A stretch of 42,623 nucleotides of DNA. It comes from Acutalibacteraceae bacterium. Lineage in GTDB: Bacteria > Bacillota > Clostridia > Oscillospirales > Acutalibacteraceae. Each line of letters starts with the position of its first letter. The first letter of the stretch is position 1. Shown here piece after piece: positions 32,467-39,613 of the stretch. Position numbers and translations under genes: made by a program. The stretch lies in the NCBI GenBank assembly GCA_045656845.1, contig JAZORX010000072.1, positions 1-42,623 on the forward strand, in the 5' to 3' direction. The notes beneath the pieces were generated by a model, which was given only the letters and a program-made list of their open reading frames with translations, did no database searches and was not told where the DNA came from.

Positions 32467-35229
32467 TCAGTCTTCAGGTGTACCTTCATCTTCCTTTTTG
32501 AGCTTACCGACGCCTACGAGAAGCATTGCACTTATCAATGTTGCATAAACACCGATGGGGATGCAGTATGATGCAGCAGACTCGGTTTTAGACATAGGCT
32601 CATTTACAGCAACTTTTTCAAGATCCTTAAATGAAACGATTGTATAGTAGGGTTCTTCATCGTAAGAGGTTTCAACACCCTTGATTGAGAACGACCAATC
32701 ACCCGGAACAGGATTTTCAACCGTTACAACGGAAGGAATAGACTTGTAGTCGATAGAAACACCGGGATATTCTTCGTCAACAACTCTGCCACTCGGGTCA
32801 AGGAGTATTGTTTCGAGGAAAGAACCGGGCCATGCAGTGGTTACGCAGAGATCACCGCTTCCTTCTCCGACGGTGAATTTTTCGGGATCAGTTGTCTCGC
32901 CCTGAGAAACTGTACCTTCAACTTCAGTGATAACGTTTGAAGTACTTGCCTGCTGAGCATACATAAAGCTGCCGACGATACCCATAATGCTGCTTGTGTC
33001 GGCAAATCTGTATTCGCCACCCGTCAGAGATGCAATTTCTTCAAGAAGATCCTTGTCAACATCGCTGCCGAAGCCGATAGTGTATATTTTGATGCCTTTT
33101 TGCTTAGCTTTTTCTGTTGAAGCTATGATACCGCTTCTGTTACTGTCCTGACCGTCAGTCATAAGAATGATGATCTTATTGTGTGAAGTAACTGCATCCA
33201 GCTGAGAAATACCTGTTTCAAGACCTGAAGAGATATTTGTTCCGCCACCGTCGCCGATGCGGTCAATACAAGCGCCGACATAATCATAGTCTACGTGCGG
33301 TATGGTAACTGTTTTAGAAGAGCTTCCGAACTGAACAACACCGATACCGTTCTGATCGGATTTGTATTTTTCGGCCCATTTTTTCGTTGTTGACAAAATA
33401 ATTTTAGATGCGCTCTGTGCAGCCTGAAGCTTTGTTTCACCCGTGTCGACTCTGCCACTCATTGATCCCGATGCATCGAAAACAATTGATATAACAGAGG
33501 TGAAATCGGTAGGAGCAATTCTCTTTGAAACGGGGATTGACAGCTTGTATTTATCAGGTGTCTGTCCCTTTTCAAAAAGTGTCAGGTCAAGAAGGGCAAA
33601 CTGGAAATCAACATCGAGCGAAACATTATCCAGCCATTTTTGACCCTGAGCGGTTATCTTGACTTTGAACTCGAGCATTTTCAGATACAGCCGCGCGTAA
33701 TATTCATAAGCTTCTGCATCTACCTTTGTTGTTGTGCTTGTATGGCTTGCTTCAATGGTTGTACTGCCTTTGGTCTGAAGGCCCAGACGGGCGGCAGAAA
33801 CCTCGGCAACATTAACACCTGCGATATAAAAGAGAACAGAGCAGCCTGCAAGTGTAATGTCTGTATCTGCGCTGAAGGAAAGAGTAGCATTCCACTTAAC
33901 ACCGTCTTCTTCGGCATCGTGGGTTTTCGTGTACGGATAGCTTTCAAGTCTTATGCATTTTTCGCCCTCATGGCAGAGTGTTAAGCCATTGTTAAAGCTG
34001 TGGGCATAAGTGAAGCCTGCGTTGAGATCAAGAGAGATGTTGCCTTCCCAGTCTGAGTAAACAACCATAAAGATTGTCGGATAAATAGCCTCTCTCTTTG
34101 TTTCGTATGTTTTTGTTGAAATATAAACAGGGGCAGTTCCTTTGAACTGGAAAACTGCTAATGGGAAACGCTTGTCGTTAAGACCTTCGAGAGAAAGATA
34201 TTTCCATTCTTTTTTAGTTGCATCAGCCTGAACATCGGCACTGAACGATCCGTTGATATTAACATTTGCATACATCTGGCCGCTGAGACCTACATAAAAT
34301 TCCTGCAGATCTGTTGCGCTGGGCATATCTATTACGAGGTGCGCTGCAAGGTCTTTAATACCTATCTTACCGGTAAGCTTGCAGGAAGAGCCGGCATCAA
34401 CGATAGCGTTGGGATCTTCTGCACCCTGGGCTTTCTTGCCAAGGTCAGCATCAAGAGTAACGATAAGGTCCTGACCAGAGGTGCTGTACTCATTAGCCAT
34501 AAATCCGACTTCGGCACCATTTGCGTTATATTCAAGGCTCTGGTTAGCAGAGGGTGATAAAGTTTCTGTCTGGGAAACTACGGATATTTCCTCGTCAACA
34601 CTTCCGAAATGCGAAGAAACACCGTCCATATAATAAGCGTCAATCAGGGTTGCCTGTGACAGAGTGTTGGTTGAGCTTACCTCAAGATTTTCAAAAACTT
34701 CATTGAAATCGGGCTCGCTGACCTCAAGAGTAGCTTCACCGTTATAGTTTGAAACATTATCAACCTTAAAGAAACGGTCTTCGCCAAAAGCAGTGTTTTC
34801 GTCACCTTTAAGTTGAATAATTCTGCTGCTGGTAATTCCATCAAGGAATGTAGGGTCAGGGTTCTGCATTTTGATAGAATATCTGTTACCGTTGTATGCA
34901 GTGCGTGTCTCAACACCCACAATGGAAGAGTTGATAGCATCTGACTGAGCATCGGAAAGGAAAACGACTCCGTCCTTTACCGTTACCTCATTTTTAAGAT
35001 GTGAAAAACGGTCGGTAGGATATTCGTAAGCAACTGCATTTGTGGCAGTGTCGCCTGCAGGTGTACCGTCGGGATTGCTCGGGTTTTCTCCGTTTTCATC
35101 GGCTTTGTTTTTGCTCAGAGCAGCTACAACAACACCAAAAGAGGTTGAGAGAATTCCCAGACAAAGAGTTATAATAAGAAATATTTTCAAGCCTTTGAGC
35201 AGCTTTGGAATAAAGCTTTTTTTATTCAT
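32467..35229 (-). CDS. Large vWA-domain surface protein with N- and C-terminal TM anchors
   Basis: 920 aa. N-terminal TM (IFLIITLCLGILSTSFGVVVAAL); beta-rich region of about 540 aa of unknown fold; vWA with MIDAS DASGSMSG (33457-33477) and MTDGQDS; C-terminal beta domain; terminal TM plus acidic tail. Confidence 0.8.
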   Translation of the reverse strand: MNKKSFIPKLLKGLKIFLIITLCLGILSTSFGVVVAALSKNKADENGENPSNPDGTPAGDTATNAVAYEYPTDRFSHLKNEVTVKDGVVFLSDAQSDAINSSIVGVETRTAYNGNRYSIKMQNPDPTFLDGITSSRIIQLKGDENTAFGEDRFFKVDNVSNYNGEATLEVSEPDFNEVFENLEVSSTNTLSQATLIDAYYMDGVSSHFGSVDEEISVVSQTETLSPSANQSLEYNANGAEVGFMANEYSTSGQDLIVTLDADLGKKAQGAEDPNAIVDAGSSCKLTGKIGIKDLAAHLVIDMPSATDLQEFYVGLSGQMYANVNINGSFSADVQADATKKEWKYLSLEGLNDKRFPLAVFQFKGTAPVYISTKTYETKREAIYPTIFMVVYSDWEGNISLDLNAGFTYAHSFNNGLTLCHEGEKCIRLESYPYTKTHDAEEDGVKWNATLSFSADTDITLAGCSVLFYIAGVNVAEVSAARLGLQTKGSTTIEASHTSTTTKVDAEAYEYYARLYLKMLEFKVKITAQGQKWLDNVSLDVDFQFALLDLTLFEKGQTPDKYKLSIPVSKRIAPTDFTSVISIVFDASGSMSGRVDTGETKLQAAQSASKIILSTTKKWAEKYKSDQNGIGVVQFGSSSKTVTIPHVDYDYVGACIDRIGDGGGTNISSGLETGISQLDAVTSHNKIIILMTDGQDSNRSGIIASTEKAKQKGIKIYTIGFGSDVDKDLLEEIASLTGGEYRFADTSSIMGIVGSFMYAQQASTSNVITEVEGTVSQGETTDPEKFTVGEGSGDLCVTTAWPGSFLETILLDPSGRVVDEEYPGVSIDYKSIPSVVTVENPVPGDWSFSIKGVETSYDEEPYYTIVSFKDLEKVAVNEPMSKTESAASYCIPIGVYATLISAMLLVGVGKLKKEDEGTPED

Positions 35230-36032
35230 TTCTGTTTCCTCCTTTTATTGAGAATTGAAGAAATAACAATTGTTGCTGCAACAAATAACAGCGCGGCTAC
35301 TGCGTGAATGATAAATGTTGTGAAAGTAACACTTGTTATATCCTCGGCAAGGATACCTGCCTTTGCGCTGATTGCAACCTTGAAATCAGGAACAAAGTTG
35401 ACGCAAATCGGCACGATGAGTGCCATAAACAATGCCGATAAAGAAGAAACAACTGAAGAAATGATATTGAATATTTTTCCTTTTTTGGTGAAACTGGTCA
35501 CAAATGCCAATAAGGCGAAAACAGGTACGCTACAGAAAAGAGTTTTTGTAAGAACACCCAATGTTGTAGAAATAACTGTCGGGTTGAATACTCTGTTGCC
35601 TTTTATCAACAAGTTAAGGAAAGTTTCAAGAGTCATAGAGGCTTTGAAAGATTCGTTGAAGGCAGATGTGATGAAAATCTGCTTTTTCATACCGAATGAA
35701 AGGATAAAAAATAACGAAATCAAGATGTAAAGAACAGCAAGAATCGCTATGAAAGACCATTTGAGTATGTTTTCTTTTGTGAAGACAGGCTCAGAAGGAG
35801 CTGCCGGCTTGGCAGGCTTAATAACAGGTGAGGCCTGAGCTCGGTTGAAAACGGGTTGGTTTTGAATAGTGGTGACGGGCTTCGGATTGACCACGGGTTG
35901 GGGCTGAGCTGCTACCTCTTTGTTGGTATTGGCAGCGGCAGAGACTGCGGTCTTTGGCTTAGGCAACTGTGCACCACAGCTGACACAGAAATTGGTGTTT
36001 TCGTTTTGCTTTCCACACTTAGGACAAAACAT
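35226..36032 (-). CDS. Zinc-ribbon / Pro-rich linker / polytopic membrane protein
   Basis: MFCPKCGKQNENTNFCVSCG ribbon, Pro-rich spacer, then about 5 hydrophobic helices. ATGA overlap with the vWA gene. Confidence 0.7.
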   Translation of the reverse strand: MFCPKCGKQNENTNFCVSCGAQLPKPKTAVSAAANTNKEVAAQPQPVVNPKPVTTIQNQPVFNRAQASPVIKPAKPAAPSEPVFTKENILKWSFIAILAVLYILISLFFILSFGMKKQIFITSAFNESFKASMTLETFLNLLIKGNRVFNPTVISTTLGVLTKTLFCSVPVFALLAFVTSFTKKGKIFNIISSVVSSLSALFMALIVPICVNFVPDFKVAISAKAGILAEDITSVTFTTFIIHAVAALLFVAATIVISSILNKRRKQK

Positions 36033-36058
36033 AATTTCTCCCTCCTTTATTTTGCATT

Positions 36059-36087
36059 ATTATACAATATCTGACTTATAAATGCAA
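36059..36087 (-). promoter_or_regulatory. Sigma-A-type promoter of the Zn-ribbon/vWA operon
   Basis: The - strand reads TTGCAT-17 nt-TATAAT, about 20 nt upstream of the GGAGG RBS. Confidence 0.5.
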
Positions 36088-36138
36088 TAATATTACAGAT
36101 AACTTGTCTTTTGTTGCATAAAAATTTTGGAAGGACTA

Positions 36139-36167
36139 TTGACATTTGATTTTAAAAGGTGTATTAT
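36139..36167 (+). promoter_or_regulatory. Near-consensus sigma-A promoter of the DAHP synthase leader
   Basis: TTGACA (36139-36144)-17 nt-TATTAT (36162-36167). Confidence 0.6.
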
Positions 36168-36195
36168 GTTGAAAATTTTCGAAGGAGGAAACGAT

Positions 36196-36267
36196 ATGTT
36201 TAATAAAAACTTTTACTTTTATTACTTTATCAAAGGTCGTTCATCTTCTTCGTTTTTCGGAGCTTAA
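36196..36267 (+). CDS. Candidate Phe/Tyr-rich leader peptide (23 aa, MFNKNFYFYYFIKGRSSSSFFGA)
   Basis: GAAGGAGGA RBS lies 6 nt upstream of the ATG. 6 Phe and 3 Tyr in 23 codons, including FYFYYF at codons 6-11. It sits between the promoter and an intrinsic terminator upstream of an aromatic-pathway gene. Confidence 0.6.
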   Translation: MFNKNFYFYYFIKGRSSSSFFGA

Positions 36268-36294
36268 AGCTTCGCAAGAATAAGAGAACGACCT
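36234..36294 (+). promoter_or_regulatory. Candidate antiterminator helix of the aro leader
   Basis: aggtcgttc(a)tctt (36234-36247) pairs with aagagaacgacct (36282-36294): 13 bp with one bulge. The 3' arm shares gacct (36290-36294) with the terminator stem. Confidence 0.5.
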
Positions 36295-36340
36295 GCAGGT
36301 GTTTATGCTTCAGCATAAATTTTGCAGGTCTTTATTTTTT
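36290..36340 (+). terminator. Leader (attenuator) intrinsic terminator upstream of DAHP synthase
   Basis: gacctgca (36290-36297) pairs with tgcaggtc (36323-36330), plus upper stem tttatgc/gcataaa, followed by tttatttttt (36331-36340). It lies 18 nt before the DAHP synthase ATG. Confidence 0.8.
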
Positions 36341-36358
36341 ACAAAAGAGGTAATTGTT

Positions 36359-37387
36359 ATGAAAATGCATTTCGCAAGAAAGCTTCCGATTCCACAGGAT
36401 GTTAAGCGAGATTTTCCTGTGTCGGAGAAAATGGCAGAGGTCAAAGCAGCAAGAGACAAAGAGATTGAAGCGATTTTTGAAGGGAAGTCGGATAAGTTTA
36501 TTCTTGTGATCGGTCCTTGCTCAGCAGACCACAGAGAGCCTGTGCTTGAATATATTTCACGCCTTCGTAAAATTGAAGATGAAGTGAACGATAAGATTGT
36601 CATAATTCCGAGGATCTATACAAATAAACCCAGAACAACGGGCGCAGGATATAAGGGTATGCTTCATCAGCCTGATCCTGACGAGAAGCCTGATATGTAC
36701 CACGGTATCGTTGCAATCAGAGATCTGCATATGTCTGCACTCAGAGATTACGGATTTTCCTGCGCTGACGAGATGCTCTATCCTGAAAATCATCGTTATC
36801 TTTCGGATTTGCTTTCTTATGTTGCCGTAGGTGCGCGTTCTGTCGAAAATCAGCAACACAGACTTACCGCAAGCGGATTGGGTCTTCCCGTAGGTATGAA
36901 AAATCCGACGGGCGGTGATCTTTCGATTATGATGAATGCTATCACTGCCGCACAGTCAAGCCATACATTTATCTACAGAGGCTGGGAAGTAACCAGCGAG
37001 GGTAACCCATACGCTCATGCAATACTTCGTGGATATCTTGACTATTCGGGCCACAGTATTTCAAACTATCATTATGAAGACCTCATAACTCTTAACGAGC
37101 TTTATGCAAAATCAGACCTTGCAAACCCTGCAGTAATCGTTGATACAAATCATAACAACTCAGGTAAGAAGTATCTTGAGCAGATCCGTATTGCCAAGGA
37201 TGTTGTTCACAGCAGAAACCAGAATAATGATGTTAAAAAGCTTGTCAAAGGTCTTATGATCGAAAGCTATATTGAGGATGGTGCTCAGGGAATGGGTGAG
37301 CACATTTTCGGCAAATCTATTACAGACCCGTGCCTCGGTTGGGAAAAGACAGAAAAGCTTATTTACGAGATTGCAGAAAAGCTTTGA
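36359..37387 (+). CDS. 3-deoxy-7-phosphoheptulonate (DAHP) synthase, class I-alpha (AroF/G/H-like)
   Basis: VIGPCS, KPRTT, GMKNPTGG and GKSITDPCLGWE motifs parallel E. coli AroG. ATG at 36359 follows AAGAGG. The tracked start at 36299 would run through the terminator hairpin. Confidence 0.92.
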   Translation: MKMHFARKLPIPQDVKRDFPVSEKMAEVKAARDKEIEAIFEGKSDKFILVIGPCSADHREPVLEYISRLRKIEDEVNDKIVIIPRIYTNKPRTTGAGYKGMLHQPDPDEKPDMYHGIVAIRDLHMSALRDYGFSCADEMLYPENHRYLSDLLSYVAVGARSVENQQHRLTASGLGLPVGMKNPTGGDLSIMMNAITAAQSSHTFIYRGWEVTSEGNPYAHAILRGYLDYSGHSISNYHYEDLITLNELYAKSDLANPAVIVDTNHNNSGKKYLEQIRIAKDVVHSRNQNNDVKKLVKGLMIESYIEDGAQGMGEHIFGKSITDPCLGWEKTEKLIYEIAEKL

Positions 37388-37413
37388 TACATTTAAAAAT
37401 ATGATAAAAGCTC

Positions 37414-37460
37414 AGGCTGTATCAGGTCATCTTACCGATGCCGATACAGCCTTTGTTTTG
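37414..37460. terminator. Hairpin terminator between aro gene (+) and the transporter operon (-)
   Basis: aggctgtatc (37414-37423) pairs with gatacagcct (37443-37452) with a 19-nt loop, followed by ttgttttg. An A-run lies on the left side. Confidence 0.6.
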
Positions 37461-37479
37461 TCAGATTCAGATTTTAAAG

Positions 37480-37968
37480 TCAGACATCAGCCATCTTCAT
37501 TTTGCTGAATTTCTGACCCCAGGCATTTGCCCAGGCCTCACAATAAAGCTTGTAATAAGAAATATTGTTCTTTTTTCTGTATCCCTCAAAGCAATTGCAC
37601 CATATCATTGAAGGCAGAGCGATAACGATATAGTAGAGAGGGCCGAGAAGAAGGCATTGCCATGTGTGTCCGTATTCGTGGATACGGGTGTTATATGTCC
37701 ATTTTTTGCTCTTATGGTTGTCTTTCATAAAGATGAAAAGTCCGAGCGAAAGACCACCTGCCTTCCACGGAAGATAGACGATATATGCATAGCCGAACCT
37801 TTGCCAACGGCGTTTTTTGATCTTTGTGCAGAAAAGAAAAGCGATGCCACCGACGATGTTGACCGGCAGACCCCAGGTCCACTGAATAAGAAAGAAAAGA
37901 AAATCAATCAAAGAATTCTTAAAGTTTTTCTCTTTTTTATCAGGATGTTTTTTTGTAATATCAACCAT
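37480..37968 (-). CDS. Small membrane protein with HExxH motif (putative membrane zincin; hypothetical)
   Basis: 162 aa with 3-4 hydrophobic helices and RIHEYGHTWQ (HEYGH). The ATG overlaps the transporter stop by 8 nt. Confidence 0.55.
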   Translation of the reverse strand: MVDITKKHPDKKEKNFKNSLIDFLFFLIQWTWGLPVNIVGGIAFLFCTKIKKRRWQRFGYAYIVYLPWKAGGLSLGLFIFMKDNHKSKKWTYNTRIHEYGHTWQCLLLGPLYYIVIALPSMIWCNCFEGYRKKNNISYYKLYCEAWANAWGQKFSKMKMADV

Positions 37969-39613
37969 TAGCTTCAGCCTCCCTGAGCTTTTTCTGCTCG
38001 ATTAAAATGAGATAATTGCCATCTTCATCTGTGTTAAGGAAATGCTCTTCGTTGTCGCTGTTACCCTGACCGAGCCAGGTCTTTTCAAATTTCTGACCGG
38101 ATATGATTTCACAGCGTTTTTTCTGCTCATCGGTAAGCGTAACGCTGCCGTATTTATGCTTTGTAGCGATTGCAGCACGGATCATTGTGTGGTCGTCCTT
38201 TGTCATACGGAATCTCTTGAGAAGAACAAGAGAAATGATTGCTGCAACAATCGGTATAACTGCGACGCAGATTCTGACGCCCCATATTGCACTGTCGCTC
38301 TGCTCAAAAAGAGAACCCGTTGTTTTCTCGTACTCTGAAACGGTGTCTCCCGTTATCAGACCGAAGCCCTGAAGAGTGAAGCCTACCATAGCGGCCATAA
38401 CTCCACTGATGCTTTTTTTGATAAGTGTGCTGAAGGTTGCGATTACGCCCTCTCTTCTTCTGCCGGTAATAAGCTCGTCAATGTCGGTAAGGTCGGGGAA
38501 AATATTGGTTGAAACAAAACCGAGACCTGACATGCCGAAAGGATAGAGAAGCATGCTAAGCATCATCAGTGCACTCCAGAAGAATGAGCCTCCCGATTGC
38601 ATCACAAGACCGATTGCAAGGCCTGCCACCATAAGAGGGGTGACGATATTGCCACATTTTTTCTTGCCGTGTTTCATTGTCAGCGCATAGTTGAGTGGAA
38701 AGGCAGCAGCCTCAGCAACACCTGCAACAGCGTTGAAAACGGCATAACCACTGTACTGGTTGGCAAGATATTTTATATAATAAACCTTTGAGTTAGCATA
38801 AAATCCCGTTGCAAACTGATAAGCAAGGCTCATAAAGAAATACTGCCTGAAGGACTTGTTTTTAAAGACAAGTACATATTCGTGAATGATATATTTTATA
38901 TCGAGCTTTTCATTTTTGTTGTTAAGTGAACTCGGTTCTCTTGTTTTAAGATATGTAAGAAAAACGGCAAATCCGAAGAAGACCGAAAGCACGATACCGA
39001 TAAAAAGAAACGGTGTCTTTGACTCGGAGGTAAGATCGTCGTTTGATCCGAAAATCGCAAGAATGGCAACAACAATTCCGAAAGCCGGCACCATACCTGC
39101 AGAGTTGAAAAGATAACCTACAGAATTGTATTGAGTGCGCAGATTGTATTCGGGCGCAAGCTCAGGGAGCATAGCTGTATGAGGCACACCGATAACCGTA
39201 TACGCTGTTTTATAAAGCATATATACAATTATGAAGTATGTCATTGTGAGATATGGCGAGGTTTTGCCGTTGAGACCGAATGAATTCCACATCAGTGTGT
39301 AAGAGAGCATCATCAGCGGAATACCCCAGAGAAGATACCGGCGATGTTTACCGGTTCTGGAGCGTGTACGGTCTGTTATAATACCCATAACAGGGTCTGT
39401 TATCGCATCCCAGACGGTTGCGATCATAACGACAATACCTGCCTGATTGAGCGAAAGGTTGACGACATCAGTAAGGAAAACAGTAAAGTACATACTGATA
39501 ATGTAACCTGCGCCACCCATATACATGTTTGCATAGCTGTAGTTGATCATGGGCAGAATGGTAGTTTTGAAATCGCCCTGAACACCTACTAGTTTTTTTA
39601 GCTTTTCTCCCAC
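37961..39613 (-). CDS. GPH-family (MelB/GusB-like) glycoside:cation symporter with C-terminal extension of about 90 aa
   Basis: GPH signature WDAITDPVMGIITDRTRSRTGKHRRY and about 12 TM helices. GTG start after GGGAGTGA. Confidence 0.85.
   Translation of the reverse strand: MGEKLKKLVGVQGDFKTTILPMINYSYANMYMGGAGYIISMYFTVFLTDVVNLSLNQAGIVVMIATVWDAITDPVMGIITDRTRSRTGKHRRYLLWGIPLMMLSYTLMWNSFGLNGKTSPYLTMTYFIIVYMLYKTAYTVIGVPHTAMLPELAPEYNLRTQYNSVGYLFNSAGMVPAFGIVVAILAIFGSNDDLTSESKTPFLFIGIVLSVFFGFAVFLTYLKTREPSSLNNKNEKLDIKYIIHEYVLVFKNKSFRQYFFMSLAYQFATGFYANSKVYYIKYLANQYSGYAVFNAVAGVAEAAAFPLNYALTMKHGKKKCGNIVTPLMVAGLAIGLVMQSGGSFFWSALMMLSMLLYPFGMSGLGFVSTNIFPDLTDIDELITGRRREGVIATFSTLIKKSISGVMAAMVGFTLQGFGLITGDTVSEYEKTTGSLFEQSDSAIWGVRICVAVIPIVAAIISLVLLKRFRMTKDDHTMIRAAIATKHKYGSVTLTDEQKKRCEIISGQKFEKTWLGQGNSDNEEHFLNTDEDGNYLILIEQKKLREAEANG

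Follow-up and report, generated by a model that had tools for sequence, protein, structure and literature searches.

Which signal decides whether transcription reaches the gene for 3-deoxy-D-arabino-heptulosonate 7-phosphate (DAHP) synthase on contig JAZORX010000072.1 of an Acutalibacteraceae bacterium (GCA_045656845.1)? The window, by which we mean the whole stretch of DNA analysed, is a 42.6-kb contig stretch (42,623 nucleotides; G+C content 43.5%), in which a short open reading frame (ORF) rich in phenylalanine (Phe) and tyrosine (Tyr) codons and an intrinsic terminator lie between a promoter and this gene. A sequence-only reading of the locus had proposed control by a ribosome translating the short ORF, and the parts it described, namely a promoter, a Shine-Dalgarno (SD) sequence, a 23-codon ORF with the run FYFYYF, a terminator and a competing helix, are all present in the sequence where it had placed them. 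Based on sequence comparison and modelled RNA folding, the element most likely works as a ribosome-mediated Phe/Tyr leader-peptide attenuator of a monocistronic DAHP synthase gene, with the ORF, its aromatic run, the antiterminator and the terminator conserved and co-varying across approximately 40 loci. The anatomy first described was nevertheless incomplete, as it missed a helix between two segments termed here regions 1 and 2 and a hairpin around the leader stop codon, both of which are conserved. Four segments with alternative pairings are predicted: an anti-antiterminator formed by regions 1 and 2 (1:2), an antiterminator formed by regions 2 and 3 (2:3) and a terminator formed by regions 3 and 4 (3:4). 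The features of the window on which the argument is built are the following.

36139-36167, plus strand: sigma-70-type promoter, TTGACA (36139-36144), 17-nt spacer and TATTAT (36162-36167), an 11/12 match
36180-36195, plus strand: region 1, the putative SD-sequestering anti-antiterminator arm, comprising the leader SD and the spacer AACGAU, which pairs with region 2
36181-36189, plus strand: leader SD, GAAGGAGGA, with a 6-nt spacer to the ATG at 36196
36196-36267, plus strand: leader ORF, 23 codons plus stop, MFNKNFYFYYFIKGRSSSSFFGA
36211-36228, plus strand: uninterrupted aromatic run FYFYYF, codons 6-11 (UUU UAC UUU UAU UAC UUU)
36234-36252, plus strand: region 2, of which 36234-36247 is the antiterminator 5' arm and 36236-36252 the partner of region 1
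36253-36280, plus strand: stop-codon hairpin between regions 2 and 3, -8.8 kcal/mol, its 3-nt loop being the stop codon UAA (36265-36267)
36282-36294, plus strand: region 3, the antiterminator 3' arm, whose last 5 nt (GACCU, 36290-36294) are the base of the terminator stem
36290-36330, plus strand: intrinsic terminator hairpin (regions 3' and 4), -23.3 kcal/mol (RNAfold)
36331-36340, plus strand: terminator U-tract, UUUAUUUUUU
36344-36351, plus strand: SD of the regulated gene, AAAGAGGU
36359-37387, plus strand: the regulated gene, coding for a type I-alpha DAHP synthase of 342 amino acids

The leader promoter is the top promoter-like site in a promoter scan of positions 35000-38500, and the transcript probably starts near 36174. 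Nine codons of the leader ORF, read directly from the sequence, specify Phe or Tyr, and a six-frame search of the 42.6 kb found no other short ORF with an aromatic run. A later pair of Phe codons (codons 20-21) was considered as a second sensing site and rejected, being not conserved among relatives. The terminator has a lower stem of ten pairs, two of them G.U (36290-36299/36321-36330), a bulged U36300 and an upper stem (36301-36308/36313-36320) closing a loop at 36309-36312, and its U-tract lies 18 nt from the DAHP synthase ATG at 36359. A simple terminator scan of 35000-38500 did not list the hairpin 36290-36330, probably due to the bulge at U36300, which leaves too few G-C pairs in a contiguous stem.

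The regulated enzyme is, from its sequence, a type I-alpha DAHP synthase, as the sequence-only reading had held. This assignment is made because the protein matches Pfam DAHP_synth_1 (PF00793) and the NCBIfam models TIGR00034 (aroFGH) and NF009395, and because it matches, over its full length, entries of the Protein Data Bank (PDB) for AroF and AroG from E. coli and for Aro4 from yeast (E-values 1e-61 to 1e-47); its relatives align from residue 1. Both neighbours of the gene are encoded on the minus strand, and the gene is therefore monocistronic and the hairpin at 36290-36330 cannot terminate an upstream gene.

Is the arrangement maintained by selection, or is it a feature of one contig? The first search for relatives used the DAHP synthase protein and took no account of the leader; it covered one genome per species, giving a protein-led sample of the 80 closest loci (67-92% protein identity) in metagenome-assembled genomes (MAGs) labelled Acutalibacteraceae, Oscillospiraceae, Eubacteriales and Clostridia. 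The leader is carried by 13 of the 80 loci (L001-L004, L006-L008, L010-L013, L016 and L017), all of which rank within the top 17 by enzyme similarity, with leaders such as MFDKKFYFYYFIKGCPSSLISEA, MRANKFFYYFYYFAKGCPSSVNSRA and MFVSNASYYYYYFCKGCPSFVNAEL. Four closer proteins (88-94% identity) led to six contigs (L136-L141), and the leader was found in all six. Scanning metagenomes for a pattern based on regions 2 and 3, the most conserved of the arms, returned 55 stretches, of which ~22 are genuine, each with a Phe/Tyr leader ORF, and where the contig is long enough the gene 3' of these copies is in nearly all cases the same DAHP synthase. This amounts to ~40 homologous elements from Oscillospirales/Clostridia MAGs and metagenomes, in nearly every case directly upstream of an orthologous DAHP synthase gene. 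All retain the SD, the antiterminator, the terminator and an open frame in which Phe and Tyr codons are mixed (5-9 per frame) and tryptophan (Trp) codons are absent. A profile built without the window had one match in the window (36179-36317, E = 1.9e-8) and further copies elsewhere too. A family promoter of the form TTGAC[AT]-17-TAnnnT (9-12 of 12 positions) lies upstream of every promoter-proximal member, its -10 element ending 28-44 nt 5' of the leader ATG.

Conservation was counted over 33 non-identical aligned family members (alignment A2, plain MAFFT). The leader frame is open in 33/33, compared to 4/33 and 1/33 for the other two frames, and an AGGAGG-type SD lies 7-13 nt 5' of the start in 31/33, the remaining two apparently having a mis-assigned ATG. 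An ORF conserved with a strong SD could also be expected if it encoded a functional hydrophobic micro-protein and the hairpin were simply its ordinary terminator. We regard this as extremely unlikely. The C-terminal half of the peptide is free to vary except at RNA-paired positions and its length ranges from 20 to 26 amino acids; in eight loci there are tandem copies before one gene, the second promoterless; and the terminator lies 18-36 nt 5' of a promoterless biosynthetic gene, which would remain unexpressed unless readthrough were regulated.

The runs themselves hold 5-9 aromatic codons per member, with totals of 116 for Phe, 125 for Tyr and none for Trp. Codons vary synonymously (TTT 105, TTC 11, TAT 79, TAC 46), and Phe and Tyr interchange freely. 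Runs rich in UUU, UAU and UAC are also plain A+U-rich sequence, and the antiterminator would be favoured whenever the leader ribosome slows, so that the element might sense translation rate or ribosome availability in general, or be a constitutive partial terminator that keeps basal expression low, with no specific response to Phe or Tyr. Three observations make this very unlikely: Trp codons are absent from all runs; the element is associated almost exclusively with aromatic-pathway genes (DAHP synthase, tyrA, aminotransferase); and the run specifies aromatic residues in no frame other than that given by the SD and ATG. Over 36211-36228 the +2 frame reads as leucine codons (CUU UUA CUU UUA UUA CUU), and was rejected as a coding alternative, being closed just upstream by the UAA at 36201-36203 and having no start codon. 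Frameshifting at U-rich runs of this type is known for E. coli pheL (PMC3082878).

Distances within the element are tied to the reading frame. From the run end to region 2 there are exactly 5 nt in 33/33 members, and the stop codon lies 21 nt (one subtype: 18 nt) 3' of region 2; such frame-locked distances are predicted by a sensor of ribosome position and not by a protein- or tRNA-binding leader. This bears on a reading in which a trans-acting factor, either a TRAP- or PyrR-like protein or an uncharged tRNA acting on a T-box, makes the decision and the ORF is incidental or modulatory. Control of that kind is usual for amino-acid genes in Firmicutes (PMC1262725), and a pair of terminator and antiterminator alternatives does not by itself name the sensor. 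We consider a trans-acting factor very improbable here, in that it leaves unexplained the conserved SD, the open frame, the synonymous in-frame variation of Phe and Tyr codons and the frame-linked distances. The leader also has no repeated (G/U)AG triplets, specifier loop or T-box sequence, and no T-box, riboswitch or protein-binding leader model was found at E = 10 in the window or in family member L081. In a cmscan search of positions 35500-37000 against Rfam 15 (E ≤ 10) just four chance-level matches to unrelated families were returned, and the same search of L081 likewise returned nothing relevant. At gathering score, no T-box or leader match was present in 20 member loci, nor any T-box or other relevant Rfam element in 40 related DAHP synthase loci. 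T-boxes, riboswitches and the catalogued leaders (Phe_, Trp_, His_, Leu_, Thr_ and Leu/phe_leader) were thus rejected for lack of an Rfam match, and the Rfam search that the sequence-only reading had proposed as a check came out in favour of its interpretation.

Do the predicted helices show the signature of conserved pairing? RNAalifold, run unsupervised on the MAFFT alignment of 33 sequences, gives the antiterminator as the consensus structure. Its columns are 90.6% paired, compared to 21-43% in controls with the partner arm shifted by 1-3 columns, and four pairs are altered on both sides. For the terminator basal stem the corresponding values are 94.7% and 24-43% in the slid controls, with 6/8 pairs altered on both sides. 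The alignment of orthologous upstream regions, another check named by the sequence-only reading, thus recovered both a conserved short Phe/Tyr ORF with its SD and a co-varying terminator base. A U-rich tract follows the hairpin in the 33 relatives where the contig permits, and is weak in a few, such as L002 and L006b.

Two variations of the antiterminator were noted among family members. A mid-helix C.A mismatch is present in 30/33 members (A2 columns 83/153; window 36240/36288), with a U-A pair at these columns in the window and L001, and also in L136-L141 and L119, which are outside A2; as region 1 (GGCAGC) requires the mid-helix C for its own pairing, this suggests a trade-off between alternative helices. 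The element at L017:2286-2459 has a GTG start (VKKAVFNVYFYYFNKAARLL) and a region 2 shorter by one base, which alters the downstream frame, and retains the pairing of GGCUGCCCG with CGGACAGCC.

The window copy differs from the rest of the family in the sequence of its paired arms. In the family version region 2 reads GGACUGUCCG and region 3 CGGAUGGUCC, even in the closest relatives of the window (94% protein identity and 81.5% nucleotide identity in the DAHP synthase gene), whereas the window has AGGUCGUUC and GAACGACCU, respectively. The window region 2 is the counterpart of GGGCUGCCCG ('KGCP'), which is conserved in relatives, and matching alterations affect region 1 (the SD-proximal spacer) as well as the terminator 3' arm. 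Compared with L136 (window 36234-36330 versus L136:575-800), 6/6 differences in region 2 and 7/8 in region 3 are transitions, as would be expected of compensation that proceeds via G.U intermediates. The 2:3 duplex of the window has an energy of -15.5 kcal/mol, compared to -2.7 and -6.2 kcal/mol for cross-combinations with the family versions. The window copy may be a natural compensated allele, rewritten in each of its four pairing segments, and it provides a compact natural case of an RNA switch in which compensatory evolution has acted on several pairings at once.

This variant also addresses whether the signal could be arrest by the nascent peptide, as for TnaC, SecM or the Erm leaders, perhaps involving free Phe or Tyr, with tRNA charging not being the signal. 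Directly 3' of the run most relatives keep a K-G-C-P motif, proline included, as might be expected of an arrest peptide. The motif is, however, absent from the window, where the peptide reads KGRSSSS (KGRS in place of KGCP), and all RNA pairings have been kept through compensatory changes, which argues that the constraint on KGCP is on the RNA and not on the peptide. Positions of Phe and Tyr interchange, the N-terminus varies in length and sequence, and no leader or arrest peptide family of NCBIfam or Pfam is matched; a search with five family leader peptides against both databases (E ≤ 10) returned no match. An arrest peptide is accordingly a very unlikely explanation.

What, then, do the two additional structures contribute to the proposed attenuator? 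The 1:2 helix comprises, in the minimum free energy structure, the pairs 36180-36188/36244-36252 and 36190-36195/36236-36241, giving a helix of 15 bp (15-17 bp as a conserved part) that would sequester the leader SD. Its duplex energy of -17.0 kcal/mol was matched by 2/200 random 27-mers from the same sequence. The helix is present in all promoter-proximal relatives (-14 to -24 kcal/mol), and cross-combination duplex energies show that region 1 of the window fits only the window's own variant of region 2. Column-wise pair counts were dropped for this helix, as the window register is offset by 3 nt from the MAFFT columns, and duplex energies with controls were used instead. The 1:2 pairing explains the conserved coding sequence '...CPSFV...', because the latter is complementary to UCACAAAGGAGGCAGC. 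Folding of the spacer between regions 2 and 3 is likewise a property of the family, with a mean of -9.25 kcal/mol in 33 members compared to -4.25 kcal/mol for shuffles (Wilcoxon p = 2e-10). Of these members, 25 have the leader stop codon in the loop or at the closing pair, seven have it in the stem and one has it outside the hairpin, and the stem sequences of the hairpin are highly divergent among relatives.

Taken with the other pairings, these structures suggest how the switch may operate. The strong promoter would start the transcript near 36174, so placing the leader SD among its first nucleotides. When Phe and Tyr are plentiful, the first ribosome would pass FYFYYF, reach the stop codon and melt the stop hairpin; by occupying the spacer between regions 2 and 3 it would keep these regions apart. 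Behind it region 1 would capture region 2 and hide the leader SD, limiting translation to about one reading per transcript, and region 3, being free, would pair with region 4, with termination at ~36338-36340. When Phe-tRNA or Tyr-tRNA is scarce, the ribosome would instead stall at the first hungry codon of the run, and a stall at codons 6-10 would leave region 2 fully or almost fully exposed. A ribosome stalled there would lie between regions 1 and 2, over the start codon, and prevent 1:2 from forming. Region 2 would stay single-stranded until region 3 emerges, with the stop-codon hairpin bringing the two together, and the resulting antiterminator would withhold from the terminator the five basal pairs adjoining the U-tract, allowing readthrough into the DAHP synthase gene. 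In the absence of translation both 1:2 and 3:4 would form and transcription would terminate.

Folding calculations are consistent with this scheme. The segment 36170-36345 folds at -50.0 kcal/mol, compared to -30.1 ± 3.7 kcal/mol for dinucleotide shuffles (n = 200; z = -5.4; 0/200 as low). Masking of the ribosome footprint alone left 1:2 pairing spanning the ribosome, which is physically implausible, and this procedure was replaced by folding of the RNA 3' of the ribosome. With the RNA 3' of a ribosome at codons 6-10, up to position 36322, the full antiterminator is predicted (9/9 or 8/9 pairs); with a stall at codon 11, 5/9 antiterminator pairs remain, and from codon 12 onward there are 0/9. 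Without ribosomes 1:2 forms first, at -16.6 kcal/mol with the transcript end at 36256. The antiterminator duplex (36234-36247/36282-36294) consists of nine contiguous pairs, a bulge and four more pairs, at -21.2 kcal/mol.

The energies of the complete leader are less clear-cut. The minimum for the full-length RNA without ribosomes, -49.3 kcal/mol, contains 1:2, the stop hairpin and the terminator, while the antiterminated state is at -46.5 kcal/mol, i.e. 2.8 kcal/mol worse. The comparison of energies that had been suggested as a check therefore shows a slight preference for the terminator. The sequence-only reading had also described terminator and antiterminator as mutually exclusive, which holds for the five basal nucleotides 36290-36294 but not for the remainder, since a shortened antiterminator can coexist with the full terminator at equilibrium. 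Given the 5-nt overlap and the slight preference for the terminator, the decision must be kinetic.

Several points weigh against an attenuator of this design, or against parts of it. The two competing structures share only 5 nt (36290-36294), and the full-length RNA favours the terminator even with its 5' part masked. Once region 3 has been transcribed, the 2:3 state is 8-9 kcal/mol better than 1:2 with no ribosome needed, and the modelled outcome of the switch thus appears to rest on kinetics. Region 2 begins 5 nt past the last aromatic codon, and a ribosome halted at the very end of the run, on its final one or two codons, would therefore mask it. The 5' edge of a stalled ribosome would lie at about the start codon, leaving region 1 uncovered, so that any exclusion of 1:2 is presumably steric. 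The second copies of tandem pairs have no 1:2 helix, which is therefore not indispensable to the attenuator family. Of the 33 aligned sequences, 19 were pattern-selected with most of regions 2 and 3 fixed and are not independent for those arms, and the window sequence is the source of every double change in the antiterminator, covariation there otherwise consisting of wobble changes. The relatives are all MAGs or metagenome contigs. Lastly, expression of aroF in Corynebacterium glutamicum changed with Phe limitation only, and not with Tyr limitation (PMC11802643), so dual sensing is not guaranteed here.

Family members vary in number of copies and in the gene that follows. The window has a single attenuator copy and not a tandem one. 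Tandem pairs occur in eight loci (L006:2095-2468, L081:1522-1906, L084:4150-4507, L103:6858-7215, L108:1130-1512, L114:1326-1706, L119:2-299 and L094:3-294), in which the first copy has a promoter, the SD-sequestering 1:2 helix and a leader of the form ...KGCP[ST]FV.SE., and the second has neither promoter nor 1:2 helix and a leader ending in ...KGCPQIEFKR or ...KGCPHSYAFK. This arrangement looks like a two-stage attenuator. At L011:1292-2381 the leader precedes a prephenate dehydrogenase gene (tyrA; PDH_N/PDH_C) followed by that of DAHP synthase, at L087:1294-1467 (minus strand) it precedes a class I/II aminotransferase gene, and at L091 the next large ORF, 260 nt downstream of the leader, encodes an AMP-binding enzyme. 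The regulon is coherent, the leader family being shared by DAHP synthase, the tyrA operon and the aminotransferase.

The genomic surroundings of the DAHP synthase gene differ between close and distant relatives. On its 3' side in the window are a 162-amino-acid ORF without a Pfam match and an MFS_2 sugar-type transporter gene (37480-39613, minus strand), convergent with the DAHP synthase gene, and this arrangement is also kept in the close relatives L138-L141. Upstream neighbours vary: in the window they encode zinc-ribbon and VWA-domain proteins, and elsewhere a DUF2804 protein, an acetyltransferase or a beta-helix protein. In distant relatives (L005, L009, L018-L037 and many more) the DAHP synthase gene is mostly the last of a tightly packed operon and has no leader of its own; the ORFs upstream of it in these operons encode ~140, ~400 and ~285 amino acids, the last being prephenate-dehydrogenase-like by its C-terminus. 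In most leaderless relatives the start of the operon falls beyond the fetched flank. Detachment of the gene from the operon and acquisition of the leader seem to be coupled. Other RNA genes near DAHP synthase in relatives are a tetrahydrofolate (THF) riboswitch (L114:3775-3869, 86 bits) and an RNase P RNA (L035:3574-3909).

How does the element relate to what is known of attenuation? Attenuation by leader peptides is the textbook example of transcription coupled to translation and has been regarded as mainly proteobacterial and actinobacterial, with T-boxes, TRAP and riboswitches prevailing in Firmicutes. The present element is of the classical attenuator kind, and its family is not covered by the models of Rfam 15, Pfam and NCBIfam; no description of this leader family for Clostridia was found in the literature searched. 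The family is clear-cut and phylogenetically broad, and would extend the known range of the mechanism to uncultured gut Clostridia, to the entry of the shikimate pathway and to the reading of two amino acids. It should help to annotate the common 'hypothetical small ORF plus terminator' of MAGs, and could serve as a marker of the regulation of aromatic amino-acid prototrophy in gut communities. As natural material for attenuator design it offers an SD that sequesters itself, a stop codon set within a hairpin loop, two-stage tandem versions and the compensated variant of the window, and it is a compact candidate for a Phe/Tyr-responsive part in the engineering of anaerobes.

A mixed Phe/Tyr leader before a DAHP synthase gene is not without precedent, contrary to the sequence-only reading, which had taken it to be undescribed: aroR-aroF of C. 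glutamicum is known, and the candidate motif uORFC-13-1 was published in 2021. The aroR leader, which encodes Phe-Tyr-Phe and was detected by RNA-seq (Mentz et al. 2013, PMC4046766), resembles the present element in pathway step and regulatory logic, being a mixed Phe/Tyr leader before a DAHP synthase gene with readthrough upon ribosome stalling (PMC4046766, PMC11802643), and its attenuator responds to Phe but not to Tyr limitation (Neshat et al. 2014, as summarised in PMC11802643). It differs in belonging to the Actinobacteria and in having three aromatic codons, compared to six here and 5-9 in the family, and the available parts of PMC4046766 and PMC11802643 make no mention of an SD-sequestering region 1, a stop-codon hairpin or tandem copies. 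Homology of the two leaders, compared by description only, is unlikely because the phyla are distant.

The motif uORFC-13-1 (Brewer et al. 2021, RNA Biol; PMC8632094) has 24 representatives, which come from Acholeplasma and from environmental DNA of unidentified organisms and always precede aroF, the type sequence being upstream of aroF of Acholeplasma laidlawii PG-8A. Shared with the present family are -35 and -10 boxes, a ribosome-binding site, a start codon, a U-rich Phe-coding run, an extra helix and an adjacent intrinsic terminator; its description differs in specifying 'at least one' Phe and in mentioning neither Tyr codons nor an antiterminator. Members of the present family are labelled Clostridia/Oscillospirales, and, compared by description only, the two may be the same family, relatives or independent inventions. 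Among the protein matches listed there were close Clostridia-type orthologues only, and no Acholeplasma DAHP synthase.

Among Firmicutes, the Leu/Phe leader of Lactococcus, catalogued in Rfam, is another leader-peptide attenuator. Firmicutes leader peptides are rare but documented, as with the His leader before hisS/hisZ paralogues in bacilli (Naville & Gautheret 2010, PMC2965389). Both are like the present family in being amino-acid-specific leaders that replace T-boxes, and differ from it in amino acids, genes, taxa and sequences. Tyr and Phe T-boxes share the sensing of tRNA charging and the use of antitermination, but they sense uncharged tRNA directly and involve no translation. In E. coli, TyrR or TrpR represses the DAHP synthase genes. 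PMC2659441 refers to an old proposal that E. coli aroF is subject to attenuation dependent on tyrosyl-tRNA.

There is also a parallel in logic with the enterobacterial leaders pheL-pheA, pheM-pheST and trpL, which have the same four-segment scheme, a run of cognate codons and an intrinsic terminator (PMC3082878, PMC11802643). There is no detectable similarity to them in sequence or structure (cmscan, E ≤ 10), and the codons here are mixed Phe/Tyr. Region 1 is here the SD region and there the codon run, and the terminating ribosome would here occupy the spacer between regions 2 and 3 with its hairpin, whereas there it occupies region 2. Use of the SD as region 1, placement of the stop codon in the loop of a bridging hairpin and serial copies in many species may thus be three departures from the enterobacterial paradigm, and we see an even chance that the family, with these departures, is an independently evolved and uncatalogued dual Phe/Tyr attenuator, widespread in gut and rumen Oscillospirales.

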